Shown here piece after piece: positions 38,800 to 49,644 of a DNA stretch of 64,000 nucleotides. The DNA comes from Alphaproteobacteria bacterium (GTDB lineage Bacteria; Pseudomonadota; Alphaproteobacteria; MPNO01). The stretch is taken from contig CBDFLJ010000002.1 in assembly GCA_965248835.1 (NCBI GenBank), positions 288,001-352,000 on the forward strand, written 5' to 3'. The translations under genes and the position numbers were made by a program. The notes under the pieces were generated by a model that was not told where the DNA came from, searched no databases, and saw only the letters and a list, made by a program, of their open reading frames with translations. Positions within the stretch are counted from its first letter, which is position 1; every line of letters begins with the position of its first letter.

Positions 38800-39870
38800 G
38801 TGGCAAACATCGTCCTGAAGGAGCTCGTCAAGCGGTTCGGTGACATCACCGCCGTCAACGGCGTCAACCTGGACATCGAGGACGGGGAGTTCCTGATCCT
38901 GGTCGGGCCGTCGGGCTGCGGGAAGACGACGACGCTCAACATGATCTCCGGCCTGGTCGCCCCCACCAGCGGCGAGATCATGATCGGCGAGCGCAACGTC
39001 ACCCATGTCGAGCCGGGCGAGCGCGGGCTCGGGATGATGTTCCAGGACCTGGCTCTGTTCCCGCATATGACGGTGTTCGAGAACATCGCCTTCGGTCTCA
39101 GGGTCAAGCAGATGCCCGACCGCGAGATCGCCGACCAGGTGCGCAAGGTGGCCGAGTCGTTGCATATCGCGGCGCTGCTCGACAAGCGGCCGGGCGAGTG
39201 CTCGGGCGGCGAGGCGCAGCGGGTGGCGCTGGCTCGGACCATCGTCACCAACCCCTCGGTCTATCTGATGGACGAGCCGCTCTCGAGCCTCGACGCCAAG
39301 CTCAGGGTCGACATGCGGACCGAGCTCAAGGGGCTGCACGAGCGGCTCGGCAACACCTTCGTCTATGTGACCCACGACCAGGCCGAGGCGATGACCATGG
39401 CCGACCGAATCGTGGTGATGAATCTGGGCGAGATCGAGCAGGTCGGCGGCCCGCTCGACATCTACCGCAGGCCGGTCACCCGTTTCGTCGCCGGGTTCTT
39501 CGGCATGCCGACGATGAACTTCCTGGAAGGCGGGATCGAGGCCCGGGACGGGGGGCCGCGTTTCGTGAGCGGGAATCTGAGCGTCGCCCTGTCCGCCGAC
39601 CTGCCCGCCGGGCTCGCCGGAAGGCGGAGCGTCCTCGGCGTCCGCTCCGAGCACGTGACGACCGGCGCGGGCGGCATGTCGGGGACCGTCAGGATCGTCG
39701 AGCCGCTCGGCGACGCGACGCTGGTCTTCTTCGAGTTCGGCGGCGCCGGCCGGCTGGTCGCCAAGACCGACCCCGACCTGACGTTTCGCCCCAACGACCC
39801 GGTGACCTTCGACTTCGATGCCGCGCACTGCCACCTGTTCGATCCCGCCGACGGCGCAAGGCTGAATTAG
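38800..39870 (+). CDS. ABC transporter ATP-binding protein (MalK-like)
   Basis: GPSGCGKT, SGGEAQR, MDEPLSSLD, YVTHDQ, TOBE tail. Confidence 0.93.
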   Translation: MANIVLKELVKRFGDITAVNGVNLDIEDGEFLILVGPSGCGKTTTLNMISGLVAPTSGEIMIGERNVTHVEPGERGLGMMFQDLALFPHMTVFENIAFGLRVKQMPDREIADQVRKVAESLHIAALLDKRPGECSGGEAQRVALARTIVTNPSVYLMDEPLSSLDAKLRVDMRTELKGLHERLGNTFVYVTHDQAEAMTMADRIVVMNLGEIEQVGGPLDIYRRPVTRFVAGFFGMPTMNFLEGGIEARDGGPRFVSGNLSVALSADLPAGLAGRRSVLGVRSEHVTTGAGGMSGTVRIVEPLGDATLVFFEFGGAGRLVAKTDPDLTFRPNDPVTFDFDAAHCHLFDPADGARLN

Positions 39871-39874
39871 GGGA

Positions 39875-40376
39875 GACGGGCCGCGTTGGCACCATGACCC
39901 ACGACGATGAGCGCAACGCAACGACCACGCTATTCGCCGCCCTGAACGTCTTCGACGGCACGGTCATCGGCCGCAATATGCAGCGTCATCGCCACCAGGA
40001 ACTCATCCGCTTCCTCAACACGATCGAGGTCGAGGCGCCGGTCGGTAAAGCCGCTCAAGTCATTCTCGACAATTACGCCGCCCACAAACACCCGAAGGTC
40101 CGGCGCTGGCTCGATCGTCATCCACGCTGGACCTTTCACTTCACGCCGACATCCTGCTCTTGGCTCAACGCCCTGGAAGATTTCTTCGCAAAACACGCCA
40201 AACGCCGCCTCGAACGCGGCGTCTTCCGCTCCGTGGTCGACCTTCAGGCCGCCATCAACCGGTTCGTCGCTGAGCACAACCAAAGCGAGGCCAAGCCATT
40301 CCGTTGGACCGTAGACCTCGACGAAATCATCGCCGGCGTCAAACGCGGGCACCAAACGTTAGATTCCATCCACTAG
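39875..40376 (+). mobile_element. IS630-family transposase 3' remnant
   Basis: GTMTHD...TTTLFAALNV...ILDNYAAHKHP...FTPTSCSWLNALE; ends CCACTAG; 5' half missing. Confidence 0.88.
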
Positions 40377-43373
40377 GTGGCGTCGGGTGACTTCTGGCCT
40401 CTCAGTCCCCGCAGCTACTGGATCAAGCCCTTCGGCAAGTGGCCCTGCGGGGGCTCTCTTCGAGGGCCAAGTCGCCGCACACTACCTGCTCACAATGCTC
40501 GCTGAAGCCGATCCGCGCGGACTGCCGGGCGTGTCTATCGAACGGATCGAGCTGCAGCGCGCAGGTGAAGGGCATCCCCTCGATGACGTCGTCGTCCACG
40601 GCATCACGCGGACAGGCGAGCCAGCAACGCTGGAGGTGCAGGTCAAGCGCACGATCACCTTCTCCCCCGGCGACACGGTGTTCAAGGACGTTGTAGGGCA
40701 ACTCGCACAAGCTTTCCGAACGCTCGATCTCGCCCATCACCGCCATCAGTTCGCCGTCTCGACCGAGCGCACCTCCTTCAAGATCACCGGTCCTTATCAG
40801 GATGTGCTGCGCTGGGCGCGCGAGGTTAGCTCGGCAGCGGTCTTCATCGGGCGGATCAACCGGGAAAAGGTCGGCAATGACAATATGCGCGCCTTTGTGC
40901 AAACAGTGCGTTCTCATCTTCTGGACGCCGGCTGCGCGAACGACGACGAGACCATTTGGCAGGTCCTGCGCCGCTTTCAGATCCTGATCTTCGACTATGA
41001 CGCACCCGGCTCCCAATCGCTCGAACTGGCACTTGAGCGGGCACGGAATCTGCTCGAACCGAGCGATGCGACGCGGGCCAGCGCCTTCTGGAAGGTCCTA
41101 ACCGAGACCGCGATCCGGGCTGCCGCTTCGGGCGGCGACCTCGACCGCGCACAGCTTCTCTCCGAAATCACAAGAATCAACGGCTTCCGGCTGCTCGGCT
41201 CGCCCCGCAATCGGATGCCGCGCGAAACCCTCGACGAAGCCGCCGGCCTCACCGCCGCCGACCTGCGCGGGAGCATCGCCGGGGTGACCTTGGCGCGCTC
41301 AAGCCAGCTCGACGCCGTGCGCGAGGCGCGCGATGAGGGCCGCTATGTCGAAATTCGCGGCGACCCAGGTGTCGGCAAGTCTGGCCTCCTAGGGATGCTC
41401 GTCGACCAGACACTCAACGAAGCACACACGATCGTTTTCACCCCGGAGCGGACGCTTCCCGGAGGCTGGTTGGCTTTCAAATCCGCGCTGCAGATTGAGA
41501 GCGGACCCGAGGCATTTCTCGCAGACCTCGCGAGCGATGGTGGCGCCGTACTCTTCGTCGACAGCCTCGACTTCTTCGACGACGTCGACAAGCGCGCCAC
41601 GGTCGTAGACCTGATTCGAGTGGCCGCCTCGATACCCACGTTCCAAGTGATCGTCACTGCGCGGAGCGACTTTGGCGAGGACGAACCGAATTGGCTGCCT
41701 TCGGAGACCGTCACAAAGCTCGGCCGCGCTCGACCTGTTTTGCTCGAAGAGCTGGGACCCGAGGAGATAGAGGAGCTCAGAGCCGCTGCGCCTTCCTTGA
41801 GCGCCCTGCTCGCCGACGACCATCCCGCCCGTGCGGTCGCCCGCAACCTCTTCCGGCTGGCGCGCCTGCTAGAAGTAAAGGGTTCAACCGATCAACTCCG
41901 GTCGGAAGTGGATCTAATTGAGCGTTGGTGGACGACGGCCGATGGCCCGGACACGGATCGACGCGGACGGGCGCGCCTGCTTGTCGATCTGACAGACGCT
42001 ATTCTTGCGGGCCGCGATCGCTTGGAGGTCCGCGCTACGTCGTCTGCCGTGGATGCCCTGATCACGAGCGGTACTCTCCGCGAGCTCGACCTCGACCGAC
42101 TCGCGTTTCGACATGATGTCCTCCGCGATTGGGGCGTGGCGGCACGCCTGCACGGCGACTTGGATAAGGTCAACCAGCTTCCGCTCAACCGTGCGGCGCC
42201 CGTCTCGCTAGCGCGGGGCGTCGAACTCGGCGCGCGGTTTGCGCTGGAGCGGTCCGAGGATGGCCAGGCTTGGATCGAGTACGTCGACCGGGTTAGTCAC
42301 GACGGGGCCCATGCATCCTGGCGCCGCTGGTCTCTTCTCGCGATCGTTCGCTCGGAACTCGCCTTCACGCTATTGGATCGAGCGTCTGCGGCACTGATGG
42401 AGAATGACGGCGCGCTATTGCGAGAACTGATCCGCACAGCGATTGCGGTCGAGTCTCGACCGCTCGCTGAAACGCTCGCCGAAGTTGGCGTCGAAGCGGG
42501 ATCAATCCCCGCCGGCATCTACGGCCCAACGAATCGCTCTTGGGAGCGTCTAGCGCGCTGGTTGCTCGCGAGGCAAGCCTGTCTGCCGCTGCAAGGGCTT
42601 CCCGACGTTGTCGAGCTATTCCAGAGCCTCTCTGCGTCCATGTTCTTCGCCGATCCAATAATTACGCCGAGAATGGCCATAGCGCTCGCCGACTGGCTCG
42701 ATGAGGTCGAGGACGCTCTGGATCATCGTTTGTCCTCGGCCGATCCGCCGAGGTTCGCGAGCGCGTTCCGGAATCATGATTTGCAGAAGCTGGCTGGCGA
42801 TGTACGGCAGGCGTTTCTCCTTATGGCCGCCCGCGTGCCCGAGCGGGCGCAAAGCTATTTGTGCCGGCTACTCAGGCGGCGAAATCCCGATCACACAATC
42901 CGCGACATCATGAAATTCCGCGGAACACTGGCGCAGGCGGCGCCTGCAGAGCTCGTTGAACTCACGCTGGCAGGGCTGATCCCAAAGGATGACCAGAAGC
43001 ACCGGAGCACGATCCGAAACGAAGCGTTCACACATCTCGACAGTGACTTCCTACCAAGTTCGCCCTCGCAGGGCCCATTTCTCGACTTGCTCAACGTGGC
43101 ACCAGAACATGGCCTCAGCCTCATCCGGCGCCTGGTCGATCACGCGATCGCCGCCCGCAGCGGCGGACGTGAACCGGGCGATGACGGGATCACGCTCCTC
43201 CTTCCGACCGGTCCGCGTGTCTTTCCGTGGTCACACTCCTATCTCTGGTCGCGACAGGCCGGCGGCTGCTACGCGGTTGCATCTGGCCTCTTGGCGCTCG
43301 AAGCATGGGCACATGCCCGGATCGAACGAGGAAATGTTCCAGAGCAGGTCGTAGCCGATCTTCTTGGGCCTGA

Positions 43374-44315
43374 GAGCCCTTCCGGAAAGTTCTTGAATCG
43401 GAAGAATCGTTTGTGATTCTGTGCTGGGCATCCGGTTTACAGGAGGAAGCCCGATGTGGACTGCGGAACACCGCCGCGCGGCGGAGCGTCGCGGACTTCG
43501 CTATCCGAGTGATCTGACCGACGCCGAGTGGGCGCTGATCGCGCCAATGATCCCGCCTGCCAAGCGCGGCGGGCGCAAGCGCTCAGTCGACGTGCGCGAG
43601 GTTCTGAACGGCATCTTCTACGTGCTGTCCACGGGCTGCCAGTGGAATGCACTGCCCAAGGATCTGCCGCCGAAGTCGACGGTGTACGACTATTTCGATC
43701 TATGGGAGTGGGATGGCACGCTGGAGCGGATCCATCATGAACTCTACGTCGCGGTGCGCGATGAGGAAGGACGCGAAGCCAGCCCGTCGGCCGCGGTCAT
43801 CGACAGCCAGAGCGCCAAGGCGGCGCAAAAAGGGGGGCGTCGATCGACGATCAAGGCTTCGATGCGGGCAAGAAGGTCACCGGTCGCAAGCGGCACATCA
43901 TGGTCGACACGCTCGGCCTGATGCTGGGCATCGTGGTGCATTCCGGCGACGTTCAGGATCGCGACGGTGCCCACGAGCTCTTGCGCCGCACCCGGCGACG
44001 GTTCCCATTCATCGAGGTGATCTACGCCGACGGCGGCTATCAGGGACCGAAGATGGCCGCGACTGTCGCCAAGACCGGGGGGTGGCGGCTCGAGATCGTC
44101 AAGCGCAACGACGTGCCCCGCTTCGAGGTGCTGCCAAAGCGTTGGATTGTCGAACGCACCTTCGCCTGGATCAGCCGCAACAGGCGCCTCGCTCGCGACT
44201 TCGAACGTCACGTTCGATCCGTCGTCGCCTTCATCCGACTCGCCATGATCCGCATCATGCTGCGCAGACTCGCCGCAACACACTCACCATAGATTCAAAC
44301 TTTCCGGATCGGCTC
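43374..44315 (+). mobile_element. IS5-family (IS1031-like) element, apparently intact
   Basis: IRs GAGCCCTTCCGGAAAGTT.. / ..AACTTTCCGGATCGGCTC; 3-bp TGA duplication at 43371-43373 and 44316-44318. Confidence 0.93.
43454..44292 (+). CDS. IS5-family transposase joined by a -1 frameshift
   Basis: RYPSDLTDAEW...IDSQSAK, then AAAAAGGGGGG at about 43827-43837, then GFDAGKKVTGRKRH...ADGGY...RWIVERTFAW. Confidence 0.88.
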
Positions 44316-46467
44316 TGAGGGTTCGCCAGCTGCATTCCTCCTCGTTGCAGTCGACGTTCTCCTCTCGCATTGGCCAAAGACCATGACGGCCGCCATCCCT
44401 TTCCTCGGTTCGCCCGAGCTGCTGTCGCTTGATCGAGGCCGCCACATCCATGATGGAATGTCGAGGTTGGACCCGAGCGGATGGTTTGGCCCCGGCCCAA
44501 ACGAACCGACAGGAGTAATTCGACTCGAAGATCTTAGAATGCGGCCGTCGCGCAGCTACCCGTTGGAAACGTTACTTGGACCCTTTGCTCTCAACGAGGC
44601 GGCCGACCACGAAAGACTGCATGCCCTGCTCGCCGCGGCTGCAGCGCGATTGGGGCCTCCTGAATCGGACGATACATTCGCAGAGCCGCGGCTTATGGCA
44701 CGCTACGCCCTTAACCTGACTGACCCTGCAAACTGGTCGTCCGTCGACGGCGGCCGTGCGTACATATCCCCGCCTGAGGAAGCCCGGCACATCGAGGCGC
44801 TCCAAGAAAAGCACGCGGCGCATACCCAGGATGTCCAAATCGACGCAGCGATACAGGGCGTGTTGGAAGACAGCACGCGATCAAGCCACGAGTTCGCGGA
44901 ACAGGCAGTCGCTTATACGCAGCGTCTGTCGACAGTCACGGATTCGCCCGAAGACGTCCTGCGCTCTCGAACCAACGCAATCGTCTCAGCCGCAATGGTA
45001 CTTAGTCGCGACGGCTCCGATAGGTTGCTCGACCAGCACGAAGAATGGGCGCGGAACGTGTTCGCGCCGACATTCGCAACCACCAACCACATCGCCGGTT
45101 CCGGGGGGCCTGACGGCATTCGTTTCAATCCTGTCGCGATCGCCACGCTCGGGCTCATTCACCTTTGGCAGCGACGCGGCCGCGAGGGTGACTGCATCGC
45201 GCTGCTAGAGCTCGCTGGACGAGAAGACTCCTTGGCTGCTCACGGCTTCGGCGGCGGCATCACTGTCCTTCGCGAGATCGACCCGCGGCTTGCGTCTGCC
45301 TTGCTGCGGTGTGCGCTTACCGCCCAAGTCCAGCCGAGTTGGGTTCGCCAGGACACCGAAGAAATCAAGGCAACCAAGCAGGCACAGCACAAGGAGCGGG
45401 TCGCGGGCGCAATTCAAGCCGAGCTGGCCTGGCTGAACAACGTTGGGCCGGAACCGACGTGGCCGATCTTCCCGCCTCCGATGATCTCTGTCCAGCGCGG
45501 CCTGAGGATCGGCGGCAACGATCACGCGGCGCGACGGGCCCCAGCCGTAATGCCAAGCGATCAACTCCATTCTCAGAGGGCCGCCACATGGATTAAACAG
45601 CTAACGCGCGATTCCGGTCCCGACGATTTAGACTGTATCGTGAGCTTTGTTGACGCTTACGCTGATTGGACCGCAGCGGCGAACGGCGCCGGACACCAGC
45701 CGGAGGCCAAGATCGAAGGCCGAATGGGCGAGTGGAACAGCGTTTTCTTTTCGCTTCTAGCCCGCGCCTTCGCGGCCATGACACCCGATCAGGTCGCCAC
45801 CCATGTTGCGCGCTCGGTTGCCGTTCCTGACGAGTCCTTCTTCGATGTCGCAAACGAGCTCGTGCGCATGATCGATCAAGTTCACTTCAATGGGTCCGGT
45901 TTGGACATCGACATGGCGGTCAGGTTGCGCAGCTTGCTGGCAGATCGTTTGGTTCAAACAGCTGGCTGGCGGCGCGAGTGCGATAGCTCGGAGCTCTCGG
46001 TTGAGATGCATATAGGCTCAGCGATTGCTGCGCTATTTTTTAACAATTACAGTCTATTCACAGGATCTTCTTGTGACCTGCTCGCCAAAGGGATCGATCA
46101 AGTTGAGCCCTTCCTGCCTGAACTGAGCAGATTGATCACTGATGGGCCGGTTCCGTTTACCGGGCTCTTGACAATGAGTCTCCTTGAAGTGTCGCCTAGG
46201 TCGGCCCACTTGAGTTTTTTCCTATCGAGTTCAATCACTTGGATCAAACGACAACCGACCAACACGCAGCTGTGGATCGACGTCGGGCTGGGCACTCGCG
46301 TTGCAAAGTGGCTGGAAACAGTCTTTGGGATCGACGCGACGCTCCGTGACCCATCTCATCCGCTGAGATCTCAAATGGAAGACGTTCTCGCTCGTCTAGT
46401 CCAGGCCGGCGTGGCCGACGCTCACAGGGTGGAGGGGCTACTAGTCTAAGGATTGTCTCGCGGTCGG

Positions 46468-46619
46468 TTCCGCTCCGTGGCGACCTTCAGGCCGCCATCA
46501 ACCGATTCGTCGCCGAGTACAACCAAAGCGAGGCCAAGCCATTCCGTTGGACCGCAGACCCCGACAAAATCATCCACGCCGTCAAACGCGGGTACCAGAC
46601 GTTGGATTCGATCCACTAG
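46468..46619 (+). mobile_element. Second IS630 right-end remnant (direct repeat of 40224-40376)
   Basis: About 150 bp, about 90% identical by eye to the first copy; ends CCACTAG. Confidence 0.88.
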
Positions 46620-47626
46620 CTTGCCAGCAGGTCTTTCAAGGCGGTGTCGATAAAGACCGCGTCGGTCGGGCTTCTCCCCGAGCCGGCCCAATGGCCCCAG
46701 ATCGTGGGGATCGGGCGGAACTCGGCATTGGGCATGTGGGCGGCTTCATACTCGCCGTCTTCGGGCGGGAAATACGTATCCGTCCTGCTCGGCATGACGA
46801 TCGCCCGCGCGCAGATCGAGGCGAGCGCGTCCTCGAAGCGGGAACCGTAGAGCGCATTGGCACTGATGTCGGCGTGCTGCCAGGTCCAGATTTGCGACAG
46901 GATGTTGTTGGCATCGAGCGACAGGCACCAGCGCTCCCAATAGCCGGACAGAAACGCTTCGAGCGTGGCGAACCCGAGGTCCTTGTACTTCTCCTCGCGG
47001 TAGAAGCCCTGCGAGGGCGGCCAGGGCGCCCACGCTCGGCCCAGCGCGCGCAGGCCGGCCGTCGGCGGCTCCTCGTAGTCGCCGCTGCGCCATGCCGGAT
47101 CTGCGGTCAGCACGGCCCGCATGCCTTCGAGAAAGGCAGTGTTGTGGATCGATGTCCGCGCCGACCCGCAGATCGGCGCGATGCGTTCGACCATGTCCGG
47201 AAACAGCGCCGCCCAGTGATAGGTCTGGATCGCACCCATCGAATGGCCGAAGGCGAGCGCGACGCTTTCGATGCCGAACAGCTCGGCGACCAGCTTCCGC
47301 TGCATTTGGACATTGTCGTAGATGGTGACGTCAGGGAAGCGCGCCTTGTCCGATGGCGGCGGTGTGTTGCTCGGCGAGGACGACAAACCATTGCCGGTCG
47401 TATTCATGATGATGATGAAATACTTGCCCGGGTCGATCGCCTTGTCCTGGCCGATGAAGTGTTCGCAGTCTTTGTCGCGCGCGCTGAACGGCGTGAAGCA
47501 CAGCACGACGTTGCTCTTGGCCGCGTTGAGCGTGCCATGCGTGGCATAGGCGATCTTCGCGCCCGGCAACGTTCGGCCCGACTGCAGCACGACCGCGCCG
47601 GCTTCGAATATCTGGTGGTCGGTCAT
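46616..47626 (-). CDS. Homoserine O-acetyltransferase-like alpha/beta hydrolase
   Basis: IAYATHGTLN, GNGLSSSPSN, GHSMGA, DTYFPPED, IWGHWAG; start at MTDHQIFE. Confidence 0.85.
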   Translation of the reverse strand: MTDHQIFEAGAVVLQSGRTLPGAKIAYATHGTLNAAKSNVVLCFTPFSARDKDCEHFIGQDKAIDPGKYFIIIMNTTGNGLSSSPSNTPPPSDKARFPDVTIYDNVQMQRKLVAELFGIESVALAFGHSMGAIQTYHWAALFPDMVERIAPICGSARTSIHNTAFLEGMRAVLTADPAWRSGDYEEPPTAGLRALGRAWAPWPPSQGFYREEKYKDLGFATLEAFLSGYWERWCLSLDANNILSQIWTWQHADISANALYGSRFEDALASICARAIVMPSRTDTYFPPEDGEYEAAHMPNAEFRPIPTIWGHWAGSGRSPTDAVFIDTALKDLLAS

Positions 47627-47629
47627 CCT

Positions 47630-48255
47630 ACGATCCTCCAAGCGGACCTCGGCCCGATCGCCGAAGACCTCGTTGACCTGTGCGCGGCATTGTTCGGCGC
47701 GTCGGTACAGCGCCTCCGCCCTGTCCGGCGGACAGCTCAACCCGTCCTCGATCATCTCGCGCAGCTTCGGGCTCATCCGCTCCTTGTGGTTTCGATAGTC
47801 CTCACCCAGCGTGCGGGTCAGCCCGACCTTGAGGATCTCCGTATGGATCTCCAACAGATCGTCATATTGCGCCGGCAATCCGACCTCGTCGACCGCCGCC
47901 CCCAGTTCGGCCAGCCGCGCTGCCGCACCCTCCACCGCATCGATGCTGGATTGCTCCGCATGGAACCACATGGGAGTCCGGCACAACCCGATCCGCGGAC
48001 TGCGGTCGAGCCCGTCAGCCAGCGGCCGCGGCGTCTGGTCGTGGACGACCGCGAAGAAGCTCGCCAGGTCGTCGAAGCTGCGCCCCATATAGCCGAGCGT
48101 GTCGAAGCTCGGCTCCAGCGGCAAAATTACCGTGAGGTCGGTGATGCCGCGCGTCGGTTTGAAGGCACAGATCCCGCGGAACGAGGCCGGACGGATCAGC
48201 GAGCCTGCGGTCTGGTTGCCGAAGGCGATGGGCACCATATGGTCTCGGTGGTCGG
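47630..48255 (-). pseudogene. Amidase-signature fragment lacking both termini
   Basis: AFGNQTAGSLIRPASFRGICAFKPT...SFDTLG; no N-terminal Lys/GGSSSG region and no C-terminus. Confidence 0.7.
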
Positions 48256-48401
48256 CTGCAAGGTTTTTTTGTTCCAACCCGATCCTTCCTCTGCAGCCGT
48301 GGAAAACCCTATTCTTGCCGCACGCGTTCCATGCAACCGCGAGATGCCGCGGCGTTCGAGTCGTCCGTCGAAGACCCTTCTCGCAACCGGGGATGAAAGC
48401 C

Positions 48402-49445
48402 ATGACCCACGCAGAAATCGGCCCGAAACTGGCCCGCGCCGCGGATGTCCTTGCGCGGGACATGATGTGCATATCCAAAGGCGAGAGCGTCCTGATTACG
48501 ACCGACACCGGGACCGACATCGTCGGGGTCCAGGCGGTCCAGGATGCCGCCTACCGGCTGGGCGCGAAGGTCGCCTCGATCGTGCTGGCGCCGCCGCTCC
48601 CGTTTCAGGGCGGCCTGGCGGACGCGTTTCTCCCTGACCACGTCAAGGCGGCGACCGGCGAATGCGATGCCTGGATCGACCTGTGCATGCCGTATCTGGC
48701 CGGCTCGAAGGCCTTCGATCGCGCGATGGAGAAGGGCCGCGCGCGATATTTCCTCGGCGCCGATATCGGGGCCGAGGAAATCGTCCGTCTGATGGGCGGG
48801 GCCGAACTCGACGCAATGTTTGCGCTGGGCGATGCGTTCGGTGCGCTGATGGCGGAGTCTGCCGGCAAGGAATGCCGCATTACCAACGCGGCCGGCACCG
48901 ATGTCGGTTTCACGCTGGCCAAGCCCGAAGGCTTCGCGCTGGCCAAGGCGACCAAGCCCGGCGGCTATTTCGTGCCGGGCACGATCGTGTTCATGCCCGA
49001 ATTGGAGTCGGTCCGCGGCTCGGTGGTCACCAGCAACATGTTCCATGAGTATTACACCGAGCTCGGCGAGCCGATGACGCTCAGGATCGACGGCAAGGTC
49101 CAGGAGGTCATCGGCGGCGGTCCGGAGAACAAGGTCATGCAGCGCGCGCTGGCCCGCGCGGGGAACGGGGATTTCGGCTACGTGGTCCATTTCACCTGCG
49201 GTTTTCATCCCGCTGCGCGCTATACCGGCAAGTGTTTCATCGAGGACCAGCGCGTCGCCGGCTACAACGCTATCGGTCTCGGCTTGCCGTTCTGGGTGCC
49301 CGGCGGAGGCGAGAACCATCCCGACTGCGTGATCTCGATGCAGTCGATGTGGGTCGACGGGCAACAGGTTCTCCAAGACGGCGTGATCATCGCACCCGAG
49401 CACCTCGTGGCGATGTCCAAGGAGCTGCTTCCGATCTACGCATAG
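48402..49445 (+). CDS. M29 aminopeptidase/NicX-fold metalloprotein
   Basis: GESVLITTD, RITNAAGTD, VVHFTCGFHP, GENHPDCV, MWVDGQQVLQDG. Confidence 0.65.
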   Translation: MTHAEIGPKLARAADVLARDMMCISKGESVLITTDTGTDIVGVQAVQDAAYRLGAKVASIVLAPPLPFQGGLADAFLPDHVKAATGECDAWIDLCMPYLAGSKAFDRAMEKGRARYFLGADIGAEEIVRLMGGAELDAMFALGDAFGALMAESAGKECRITNAAGTDVGFTLAKPEGFALAKATKPGGYFVPGTIVFMPELESVRGSVVTSNMFHEYYTELGEPMTLRIDGKVQEVIGGGPENKVMQRALARAGNGDFGYVVHFTCGFHPAARYTGKCFIEDQRVAGYNAIGLGLPFWVPGGGENHPDCVISMQSMWVDGQQVLQDGVIIAPEHLVAMSKELLPIYA

Positions 49446-49519
49446 GCGCGCTCAGCGGTCCAACAGCCGGGCTGCGTTGTCATGCAGCACCTTTCGTAAA
49501 GCGTCCGGTTGGAAGGGGA

Positions 49520-49644
49520 AGGCCTTGAACCTGTCGGAGGTCTGTCTTTCGAGCCTGCCGTTTCTCGGCTGTTCGGTGCTCCTTGTCGTCCTGATCATCT
49601 TGTTTCCCGATATCGCGCTTTACCTGCCCCGAATGGCGCAGTAA
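49520..49644 (+). pseudogene. Orphan C-terminal remnant of a TRAP DctM
   Basis: Frame reads LNLSEVCLSSLPFLGCSVLLVVLIILFPDIALYLPRMAQ*; compare the dctM end FPEISLFLPQLMR*. Confidence 0.6.

Follow-up and report, generated by a model that had tools for sequence, protein, structure and literature searches.

Are two long open reading frames (ORFs), lying one after the other on the same strand on either side of a transposable element, still to be considered a single gene and, if so, what is its intact product likely to do? The question is raised by a locus within a 64,000-nucleotide stretch of an alphaproteobacterial genome (GenBank assembly GCA_965248835.1, contig CBDFLJ010000002.1, positions 288,001 to 352,000), indicated in the following as the window, on which all coordinates are given. 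The two long ORFs are located on the + strand, at 40387..43416 (1009 aa) and 44383..46449 (688 aa). They are almost certainly the two halves of one gene, split by an insertion sequence (IS); the intact gene is best read as encoding a horizontally acquired, single-gene, Avs4-like abortive-infection receptor, that is, an Avs-type antiphage nuclease receptor as judged from predicted structures, and a probability of about 0.8 is assigned to this reading. In bacteria, Avs receptors correspond to the NLRs of animals and plants. The components of the split gene are the following:

40387..43373, + strand: 5' portion of the interrupted frame, from the GTG start (codon 1) through codon 995 to the second base of codon 996
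43371..43373, no strand: left TGA target-site duplication (TGA is found on both sides of the IS)
43374..44315, + strand: 942-bp IS5-family insertion sequence (two-frame transposase, inverted repeats, multicopy), absent from one contig of the public run X1
44316..44318, no strand: right TGA target-site duplication
44319..46449, + strand: 3' portion of the interrupted frame, beginning with the third base of codon 996 and continuing through 709 more codons to the stop, encoding a C-terminal sensor predicted to be all-helical

When the element at 43374-44315 is removed, together with one TGA copy, the frame computed by script runs through 1705 codons, the only stop being the terminal one; at the junction (43373 to 44319) the product reads ...DLLGP-E-GSPAAFL.... 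A sequence-only reading, which preceded this analysis, had described the two ORFs as halves of one gene, made continuous through ...DLLGPE... by this same excision. Both statements are borne out: by the read-through itself, by the alignment to a relative, P0002 (1713 aa), and by an IS-free contig described below. The N half is 79% identical to residues 2-994 of P0002, the C half 65% identical to residues 997-1702; the first aligns up to residue 994 and the second from 997, gap-free across the break. The expected size is also found in the family: the best full-length relatives measure 1700-1715 aa (among 8000 candidate proteins scored, 699 match the N half at E<=0.001), and an ORF of at least 1650 aa is present in 67 of 80 related loci. 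Further confirmation that the halves belong together comes from their models, which, folded separately, land on adjoining parts of the solved Avs4 structure. The split gene is single-copy in the host genome, and its two ORFs, annotated as "hypothetical", should be recorded as one interrupted gene.

The element itself contains two overlapping frames, which match DUF4096 (E 4.2e-30) and DDE_Tnp_1 (E 3e-19) in Pfam and meet at a slip-like run, CAAAAAGGGGGG, at position 43827. Its terminal inverted repeats are imperfect (arms 43369-43391 and 44298-44320, 23 nt, 87% complementary). In the host genome (2 contigs, 4.89 Mb) at least 12 full-length copies are found at 99-100% identity, along with one tandem pair and further fragments. 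Transposase type, inverted repeats, short target duplication and multiple copies identify it as an IS5-family insertion sequence with a two-frame transposase. With such elements it shares terminal inverted repeats, the DUF4096 and DDE_Tnp_1 pair, 3-bp TNA-type flanks and the multicopy state; it differs in that, of four copies checked, only two feature identical 3-bp flanks (TGA/TGA and TAA/TAA), while in the other two the TNA flanks differ in the middle base. The element is presumably IS427/IS1031-like. The IS is in active expansion, its full-length copies including two, C1:129401-130342 and 130346-131287, that lie head-to-tail with 3 bp between them. A joint between IS end and IS start, with one letter in between, is found in runs X1, X3 and X4, and may stem from the tandem pair or from circular transposition intermediates.

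Public runs X1 to X4 come from one sample, probably the source of the assembly, and hence do not represent an independent strain. In X1, a 5255-nt contig (depth 8.4) covers 40387-43369 and then 44315-46449: 945 bases, corresponding to the IS plus one TGA, are skipped, with no other difference. Since the junctions share only five letters, a de Bruijn contig would bridge them only if IS-free molecules had been read; intact and IS-broken alleles thus appear to occur together in the sample of the assembly. The insertion would be very recent and not fixed, as a zero-mismatch IS-free copy is present in reads of the same sample. In a further run, X5 (share 0.13), coverage is limited to the IS.

In the IS-bearing allele, the nuclease-NTPase chain ends at residue 996, followed by 13 IS-encoded residues, and the 709 sensor residues are missing from that chain: the allele is most likely inactive. 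Some activity might be retained, either by the 1009-aa product alone, possibly deregulated, or by reassembly of the halves, given that both halves contain long open frames with start codons and that the break falls between helical repeats of the sensor. This is very improbable: the C-terminal sensor of Avs proteins both binds the trigger and restrains the nuclease, according to PMC12803255, and a deregulated nuclease would be toxic. A promoter scan of 39800-46800 adds weak evidence in the same direction, being uninformative as a whole: no sigma-70-like site was found (1.0 expected), along with 4 terminator-like sites (5.1 expected).

For the function of the intact product, the following features, mostly placed by prediction, are to be considered:

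40444..41196, + strand: Cap4-type PD-(D/E)xK nuclease domain, by predicted fold (about aa 20-270)
40462-40464, 40582-40587 and 40639-40647, + strand: putative catalytic residues E26, D66/D67 and Q85-V-K87, by conservation and position
41269..42186, + strand: STAND NTPase module (about aa 295-600)
41359-41382, + strand: Walker A motif, GDPGVGKS (aa 325-332)
41551-41571, + strand: Walker B motif, LFVDSLD (aa 389-395)
41653-41664, + strand: VTAR motif (aa 423-426)
42106-42117, + strand: winged-helix FRHD motif (aa 574-577)
42187..43373, + strand: portion of the helical sensor that precedes the IS (about aa 601-996)

Structures were predicted by AlphaFold2 with 47 homologues, the halves being folded separately, and folds were compared by VIA-align and Foldseek. 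The N-half model (995 residues) has a pLDDT of 83.6 and a pTM of 0.72. In VIA-align, its residues from about 13 to 280 match the nuclease Cap4 (6wan_F: Z 13.0, root-mean-square deviation (rmsd) 4.6, 206 residues aligned; EcCap4, 7yib: Z 12.2; 6vm5: Z 12.1), LmuA from Lamassu (9hr5_C: Z 13.0; 9nxx_B: Z 12.4) and HamA from Hachiman (8zue_A: Z 11.6); the six entries span Z 11.6-13.0, rmsd 4.2-4.9 and 190-213 aligned residues, the query being the whole 995-residue model rather than the isolated domain. Nuclease and NTPase together (model 12-582) match residues 4-574 of Avs3 (8dgc_A) at Z 13.6. Among 44 N domains from many phyla, no variation is seen at E26, Q57, D66, D67 and Q85, and K87 is kept in at least 90%. 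E26 is located within helix 23-39, D66/D67 just ahead of the second strand (68-74), and Q85-x-K87 at the end of the third (79-87), in an order of strands and helices that fits the alpha-beta-beta-beta-alpha-beta core. Mapped by position only, E26, D66/D67 and Q85-x-K87 would fit the classical PD-(D/E)xK layout. The N-terminal PD-(D/E)XK-type motif pointed out in the sequence-only reading is accordingly found (DD at aa 66-67, QVK at 85-87), within a domain predicted to adopt a Cap4-type nuclease fold at Z 12-13.

Some further observations concern this domain. The database protein corresponding to the N half, P0001 (973 aa), starts 36 residues later (M37) than the GTG at 40387; this shorter call is probably wrong, because conserved residues 15-36, including the invariant E26 and half of the first helix, would be lost. 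In one relative (L062:10001-10810), a threonine replaces the conserved lysine of QxK (IQATR), so that its nuclease is possibly dead. A PADLOC model labelled "DUF626_VIII" (PDLC02918, 474 positions) weakly matches aa 17-209 (E 3.6e-4), as well as three of five relatives. When two copies of the N domain were submitted to complex prediction, the score was 0.02 against a mark of 0.42, in a run made without controls, and speaks neither for nor against dimerisation.

In the NTPase, both Walker motifs, the sensor arginine and the winged-helix histidine are intact; G325, G328-G333, D392, D395, T424, R426 and H576 are invariant in 48 sequences. By Foldseek, the N half finds Avs4 first (E 3e-17), followed by Avs3, SAMD9, NLRC4, NLRPs and NOD2; by VIA-align, residues 270-993 of the N-half model align with 175-892 of the Avs4 chain 8dgf_B (Z 16.4, 522 aligned). 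The C-half model (pLDDT 86.7, pTM 0.76) consists entirely of helices, and, over all of its residues (1-709), aligns with 896-1587 of the same chain, up to the end of Avs4 (Z 16.4, rmsd 7.0, 612 aligned). The next VIA-align match of the C half is a karyopherin, at Z 11.2; in Foldseek, Avs4 is found at E 8e-7, with a TM-score of 0.48-0.52 relative to the length of the query, followed by another fold at 3.5e-4. In total, the helical repeats extend over about 1100 residues, with pLDDT 84-87. A relation to Avs4 is also detected by a family profile, which hits its sequence (E 1.1e-7) through three colinear segments (294-336/207-249, 547-765/446-670, 864-1049/759-952): the match takes in the winged helix, FRHDvLreWa, aligned with ITHDIYEEWA of Avs4, and the third segment, inside the sensor, spans the IS site. 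The STAND motifs named in the sequence-only reading (GDPGVGKS, LFVDSLD, VTAR, FRHDVLRDW) are all present, in a predicted NTPase fold that matches those of Avs4, Avs3 and the animal NLRs NLRC4, NLRP3 and NOD2; its "unrecognised, probably helical" C-terminus is all-helical by prediction and resembles the Avs4 sensor from end to end. The nuclease-STAND-repeat, Avs-type architecture proposed there is in this way sustained by the predicted structures and by their fold matches.

Given the likeness of the sensor to that of Avs4, the phage portal protein is the most likely trigger, an assignment made by analogy and at slightly less than even odds. The same machine may respond instead to one or more other phage proteins, the family being then one of its own rather than a distant Avs4, and this is a real possibility, if a somewhat doubtful one. 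It is favored by the low identity of the sensor to Avs4, about 12%, and by the rejection of the protein by Avs4 sequence models (see below); moreover, unrelated sensors can share a trigger, as for Avs11 and Avs4, which both sense the portal (PMC12803255), and Avs2 can sense several proteins (PMC11564622). On the other side, Avs4 is the top match of the sensor, 5 Z units above generic helical repeats and with 612 residues aligned up to its end, and the profile-level sequence match to Avs4 falls in part within the sensor.

A mechanism for the Avs-type receptor may be outlined after solved Avs3, Avs4 and Avs7 (PMC12803255, 10.64898/2026.08.25.746987 and PMC11564622). For Avs7, trigger binding is described to relieve autoinhibition, ATP binding to drive tetramerisation, and the Cap4 domains to form the active nuclease (PMC12803255). 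The intact receptor would be, at rest, an autoinhibited monomer; binding of a conserved phage protein by the sensor would lead to nucleotide exchange and to tetramerisation via the NTPase; the tetramer would bring the Cap4 domains together as active dimers, and these would cut double-stranded DNA indiscriminately, so that the phage is stopped and the cell is lost.

The assignment of the protein to a known family depends on the type of comparison. Pfam searches with both halves gave only sub-threshold P-loop matches (nSTAND3 at 14.8 bits, NPHP3_N, AAA_16) and a chance match to MxiC_C, and the other Pfam matches of the 44 N domains are scattered chance families. The best PADLOC match is PDC-M54A (E 4.6e-17), where residues 17-598 cover positions 15-618 of a 1621-position profile; it is also matched by three of the five relatives tested (profile length 1621-1657 positions), while the C half has no PADLOC match. 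PDC systems are presented in 10.1101/2024.01.29.577857 as untested predictions made by "guilt by embedding"; the name "PDC-M54" was not found in the literature searched. PADLOC, suggested as a check along with the sequence-only reading, thus gave a partial match to a candidate system and no call as Avs4. By its defining sequence models, in fact, the protein is not Avs4, yet it is Avs4-like by predicted fold over 1400 residues. A subtype, considered unassignable from the letters, can be assigned on the predicted structures: NTPase and sensor are Avs4-like, and the effector is of the Cap4 type, as in Avs3 and Avs7, where Avs4 has an Mrr-type one.

The PDC-M54A match raises the alternative that the protein belongs to a multi-gene system and lacks its partner at this locus, PDC-M54A being the "A" gene of a multi-gene candidate. 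The match, however, is limited to positions 15-618 of the 1621 in the profile; no neighbor family is conserved in the 80 loci analyzed, beyond a recombinase in 15 of them; and both Avs3 and Avs4 act as single proteins, according to PMC11564622. A missing partner is, all considered, very unlikely, and the single-gene receptor is retained.

Relatives are widely but thinly spread. Among 185,579 species genomes, 208 candidate stretches were picked out, and 173 of them were confirmed as encoding relatives, in many phyla; the locus analyses cover 80 of these 173, from Proteobacteria, Acidobacteriota, Nitrospirota, Planctomycetota, Myxococcota, Actinomycetota and others. Searched by itself among 50%-identity cluster representatives, the N domain finds 1417 matches at E<=0.001, 192 of them at E<=1e-30. 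The closest relatives are a metagenomic protein (79%) and proteins of Gallionella (76%), Janthinobacterium (72%) and Magnetococcales, Hyphomicrobium and Acetobacteraceae (70-71%). Among 40 related genomes, only one contains a relative, at 44% identity. Of 72,556 plasmid records, 17 carry a relative, mostly rhizobial megaplasmids; none of 50,697 phage records contains a homologue, which neither helps nor hurts the receptor assignment.

In 13 of the 80 loci the ORF is shorter: six run off contig ends, five show frame changes (L017, L018, L032, L063, L067) and two an in-frame stop (L012, L013). For the last seven a pseudogene call was not made, since many are long-read metagenome-assembled genomes, where sequencing error and decay are inseparable.

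A conserved partner gene was sought in the 80 loci, and none was found. The most common neighbors are tyrosine recombinases (15 loci), serine recombinases (6), ABC-type ATPases (6), TrwC relaxases (5) and IS91 transposases (4). On either side of each relative, the two closest ORFs of 150 aa or more were scanned with PADLOC at E<=1e-10. For loci L001-L041, 121 ORFs matched 121 families, including SIR2, HerA, LmuA, GajB, AbiEi, type II and III methyltransferases and SoFic; for loci L041-L072 (29 loci), 102 ORFs matched 271 families, including GajA/GajB, PtuA, a type II restriction enzyme and a DRT reverse transcriptase-helicase. As a control, 99 ORFs chosen by the same rule at fixed arbitrary positions of ten related genomes matched 5 families. 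Matches of neighbors to mad3 and mad8 were discounted, as they also occur in the control set. The neighborhoods of the relatives are associated with defense genes: the contrast with the control is large, and the measure is crude. A homologue on pSymA of S. meliloti, for instance, has as neighbors a caspase-family gene, a pYEATS gene, an IS21 and a type I restriction-modification system in which an abortive-infection gene is embedded. Some relatives have very large ORFs (1530-1700 aa) next to them (L020:16955-22051, L027:2834-7855, L047:15179-19837, L050:18361-22949, L062:15171-20180, L073:5082-9887): that of L062 contains Mrr_cat_2 and a ResIII helicase, while the 1699-aa ORF of L020 has no Pfam match; they may be further defense genes.

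These data bear on the alternative of a non-immune STAND protein, a regulator or a housekeeping NTPase sharing only the fold with Avs receptors. STAND clades with non-defense roles are reported to be intermingled with defense clades (PMC12803255), and both the window copy and one plasmid copy adjoin transport genes. The nuclease effector, however, is conserved, with a predicted catalytic motif that is invariant; the spread is sporadic and crosses phyla, as seen from the single positive among 40 related genomes; mobile-element and defense genes are frequent neighbors, and a DNA-binding output domain is missing. A non-immune role is therefore considered improbable.

A number of results weigh against the Avs4-like receptor. 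At the sequence level, the NCBIfam model of Avs4 (NF041815) gives 15.5 bits, not reaching its cutoff of 1500, and the PADLOC Avs4 model has no match at E<=1 in either half, with weak matches in two of the five relatives tested; at an identity to Avs4 of about 12%, the trigger may differ. Neither the N half nor any of the 44 N domains matches Pfam Cap4_nuclease (PF14130) at E<=1, and the N-domain profile, run against PDB sequences, finds no Cap4 chain and nothing significant, the best match being Cas10/Cmr2 at E 0.03. As these sequence searches gave nothing, the link to Cap4 rests on the fold, on the motif and on an ESM-Atlas result scoring under 0.9, in which the nearest named clusters carry PF14130 (0.89 and 0.88), to be taken as a lead only. 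As to context, the window copy is located outside any defense island, between an ABC transporter and an amidase/hydrolase gene, and the homologue on an R. leguminosarum plasmid adjoins transporters and an IS66. The comparison of neighborhoods is crude, in that families were counted with redundant PADLOC models, control taxa differ, ORFs were simply the longest ones and 32 neighbor ORFs were left unscanned. Finally, no experiment was found on any member of the family, all named relatives being labelled "hypothetical protein" or "ATP-binding protein".

The gene was supposed, in the sequence-only reading, to be horizontally acquired, with a codon usage richer in AT than the flanks. The latter is reflected in a lower G+C content at third codon positions (GC3): 0.71 for the N half and 0.66 for the C half, vs 0.77-0.94 in six neighboring genes. 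The surroundings of the split gene are the following:

up to 39870: end of an ABC sugar-type transporter operon, the upstream flank
39921..40376, + strand: IS630-family remnant, 5'-truncated (3' part of the transposase gene; DDE_3, E 2.7e-11), ending 10 nt before the GTG start
46468..46619, + strand: another 3' remnant of the IS630 family, shorter than that upstream and 91% identical to it, starting 18 nt after the stop codon
46616..48520, - strand: amidase/hydrolase gene, the downstream flank

Six further copies elsewhere in the genome share 86-87% identity with the upstream remnant (query 22-477/478). Synteny with G002, a complete genome of the same genus, is limited to 46617-49536 of the window and stops exactly at the downstream remnant; for the part upstream of this break, nothing matches within 27 kb beyond that point in G002. 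The receptor gene is found in none of two same-genus genomes and in none of 19 same-family genomes. Horizontal acquisition is supported by the low GC3, by the failure to find the gene in these 21 same-family genomes, by the closest relatives, which belong to other proteobacterial classes, and by the IS630 remnants on both sides; the initial supposition is in line with all four. The bracketing by IS630 sequences might have arisen by capture, by recombination between IS copies, or by nested insertions followed by deletions. In the 634-aa ORF at 46616-48520 (- strand), located directly at the IS630 remnant, a partial match to Amidase (profile 141-290 of 445) is found together with an alpha/beta-hydrolase fold; this ORF may represent a gene fusion, or else a hydrolase to which a truncated amidase has become joined.

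To our knowledge, triggers of Avs receptors have been mapped almost only for enterobacterial representatives. With the family described here, the range of the Avs4-type sensor would be widened to include the Alpha-, Beta- and Gammaproteobacteria, Acidobacteriota, Nitrospirota and further phyla, in which it escapes sequence-based finders: this points to a gap in the annotation of defense systems, and offers a distant sensor for studying how recognition of the portal, or of another protein, evolves. The locus also appears to illustrate cleanly, in nature, the inactivation of a costly immune gene by an IS in a population that still contains the intact allele. Its interest thus derives from the breadth of the family outside model hosts, from its invisibility to Avs4 models and from the coexistence of intact and IS-broken alleles. 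More speculatively, and with less than even odds of being right in all its parts, the locus could be the type of a large, mostly environmental Avs4-like clade with a Cap4 nuclease, uncalled by current defense finders, whose sensor has diverged to read portals or another protein of soil and water phages, and of which a natural population has been caught in the act of switching an abortive-infection gene off.

In comparison with known systems, the family is an uncharacterised member of a kind already known, the nuclease-STAND-repeat receptors, and not a new kind of system. A recent survey (Lee et al., 2026; PMC12803255) lists 589 STAND clades, 198 of them defense-associated, and 684 sensor clusters, and the Avs4-like Cap4 family may already be catalogued there. 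The earlier suggestion of an undescribed clade holds only in part, as PDC-M54A matches the first 600 residues of the protein and the survey may include it. With PDC-M54A it shares the nuclease and NTPase region and a similar total length; it differs in that the match is confined to about the first 600 residues. With Cap4 (CBASS), LmuA (Lamassu) and HamA (Hachiman) it has in common the predicted nuclease fold and, judged by position, a putative D...QxK-type motif on the expected strands; here, in contrast, the domain is fused to a STAND NTPase, in place of a SAVED domain or of SMC or helicase partners.

The closest resemblance is to Avs receptors of known structure; 8DGC is labelled SeAvs3-Cap4-terminase and 8DGF EcAvs4-Mrr-portal in 10.64898/2026.08.25.746987. 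SeAvs3 (8DGC) and SeAvs7 feature, as does the predicted protein, a Cap4-type nuclease directly N-terminal to the STAND NTPase, but the sensor is here Avs4-like: Avs3 ranks below Avs4 for the N half and is absent among the listed matches of the C half. EcAvs4 (AVAST type 4; PDB 8DGF, with the portal of phage PhiV-1) shares the colinear NTPase and the whole helical sensor, a similar size and the single-gene organization, and differs in the effector, Mrr-type in EcAvs4 and, by prediction, Cap4-type here (about 270 aa). Exchange of effectors among Avs families is already known (10.64898/2026.08.25.746987), and the split gene would combine an Avs4-like NTPase and sensor with a Cap4-type nuclease.

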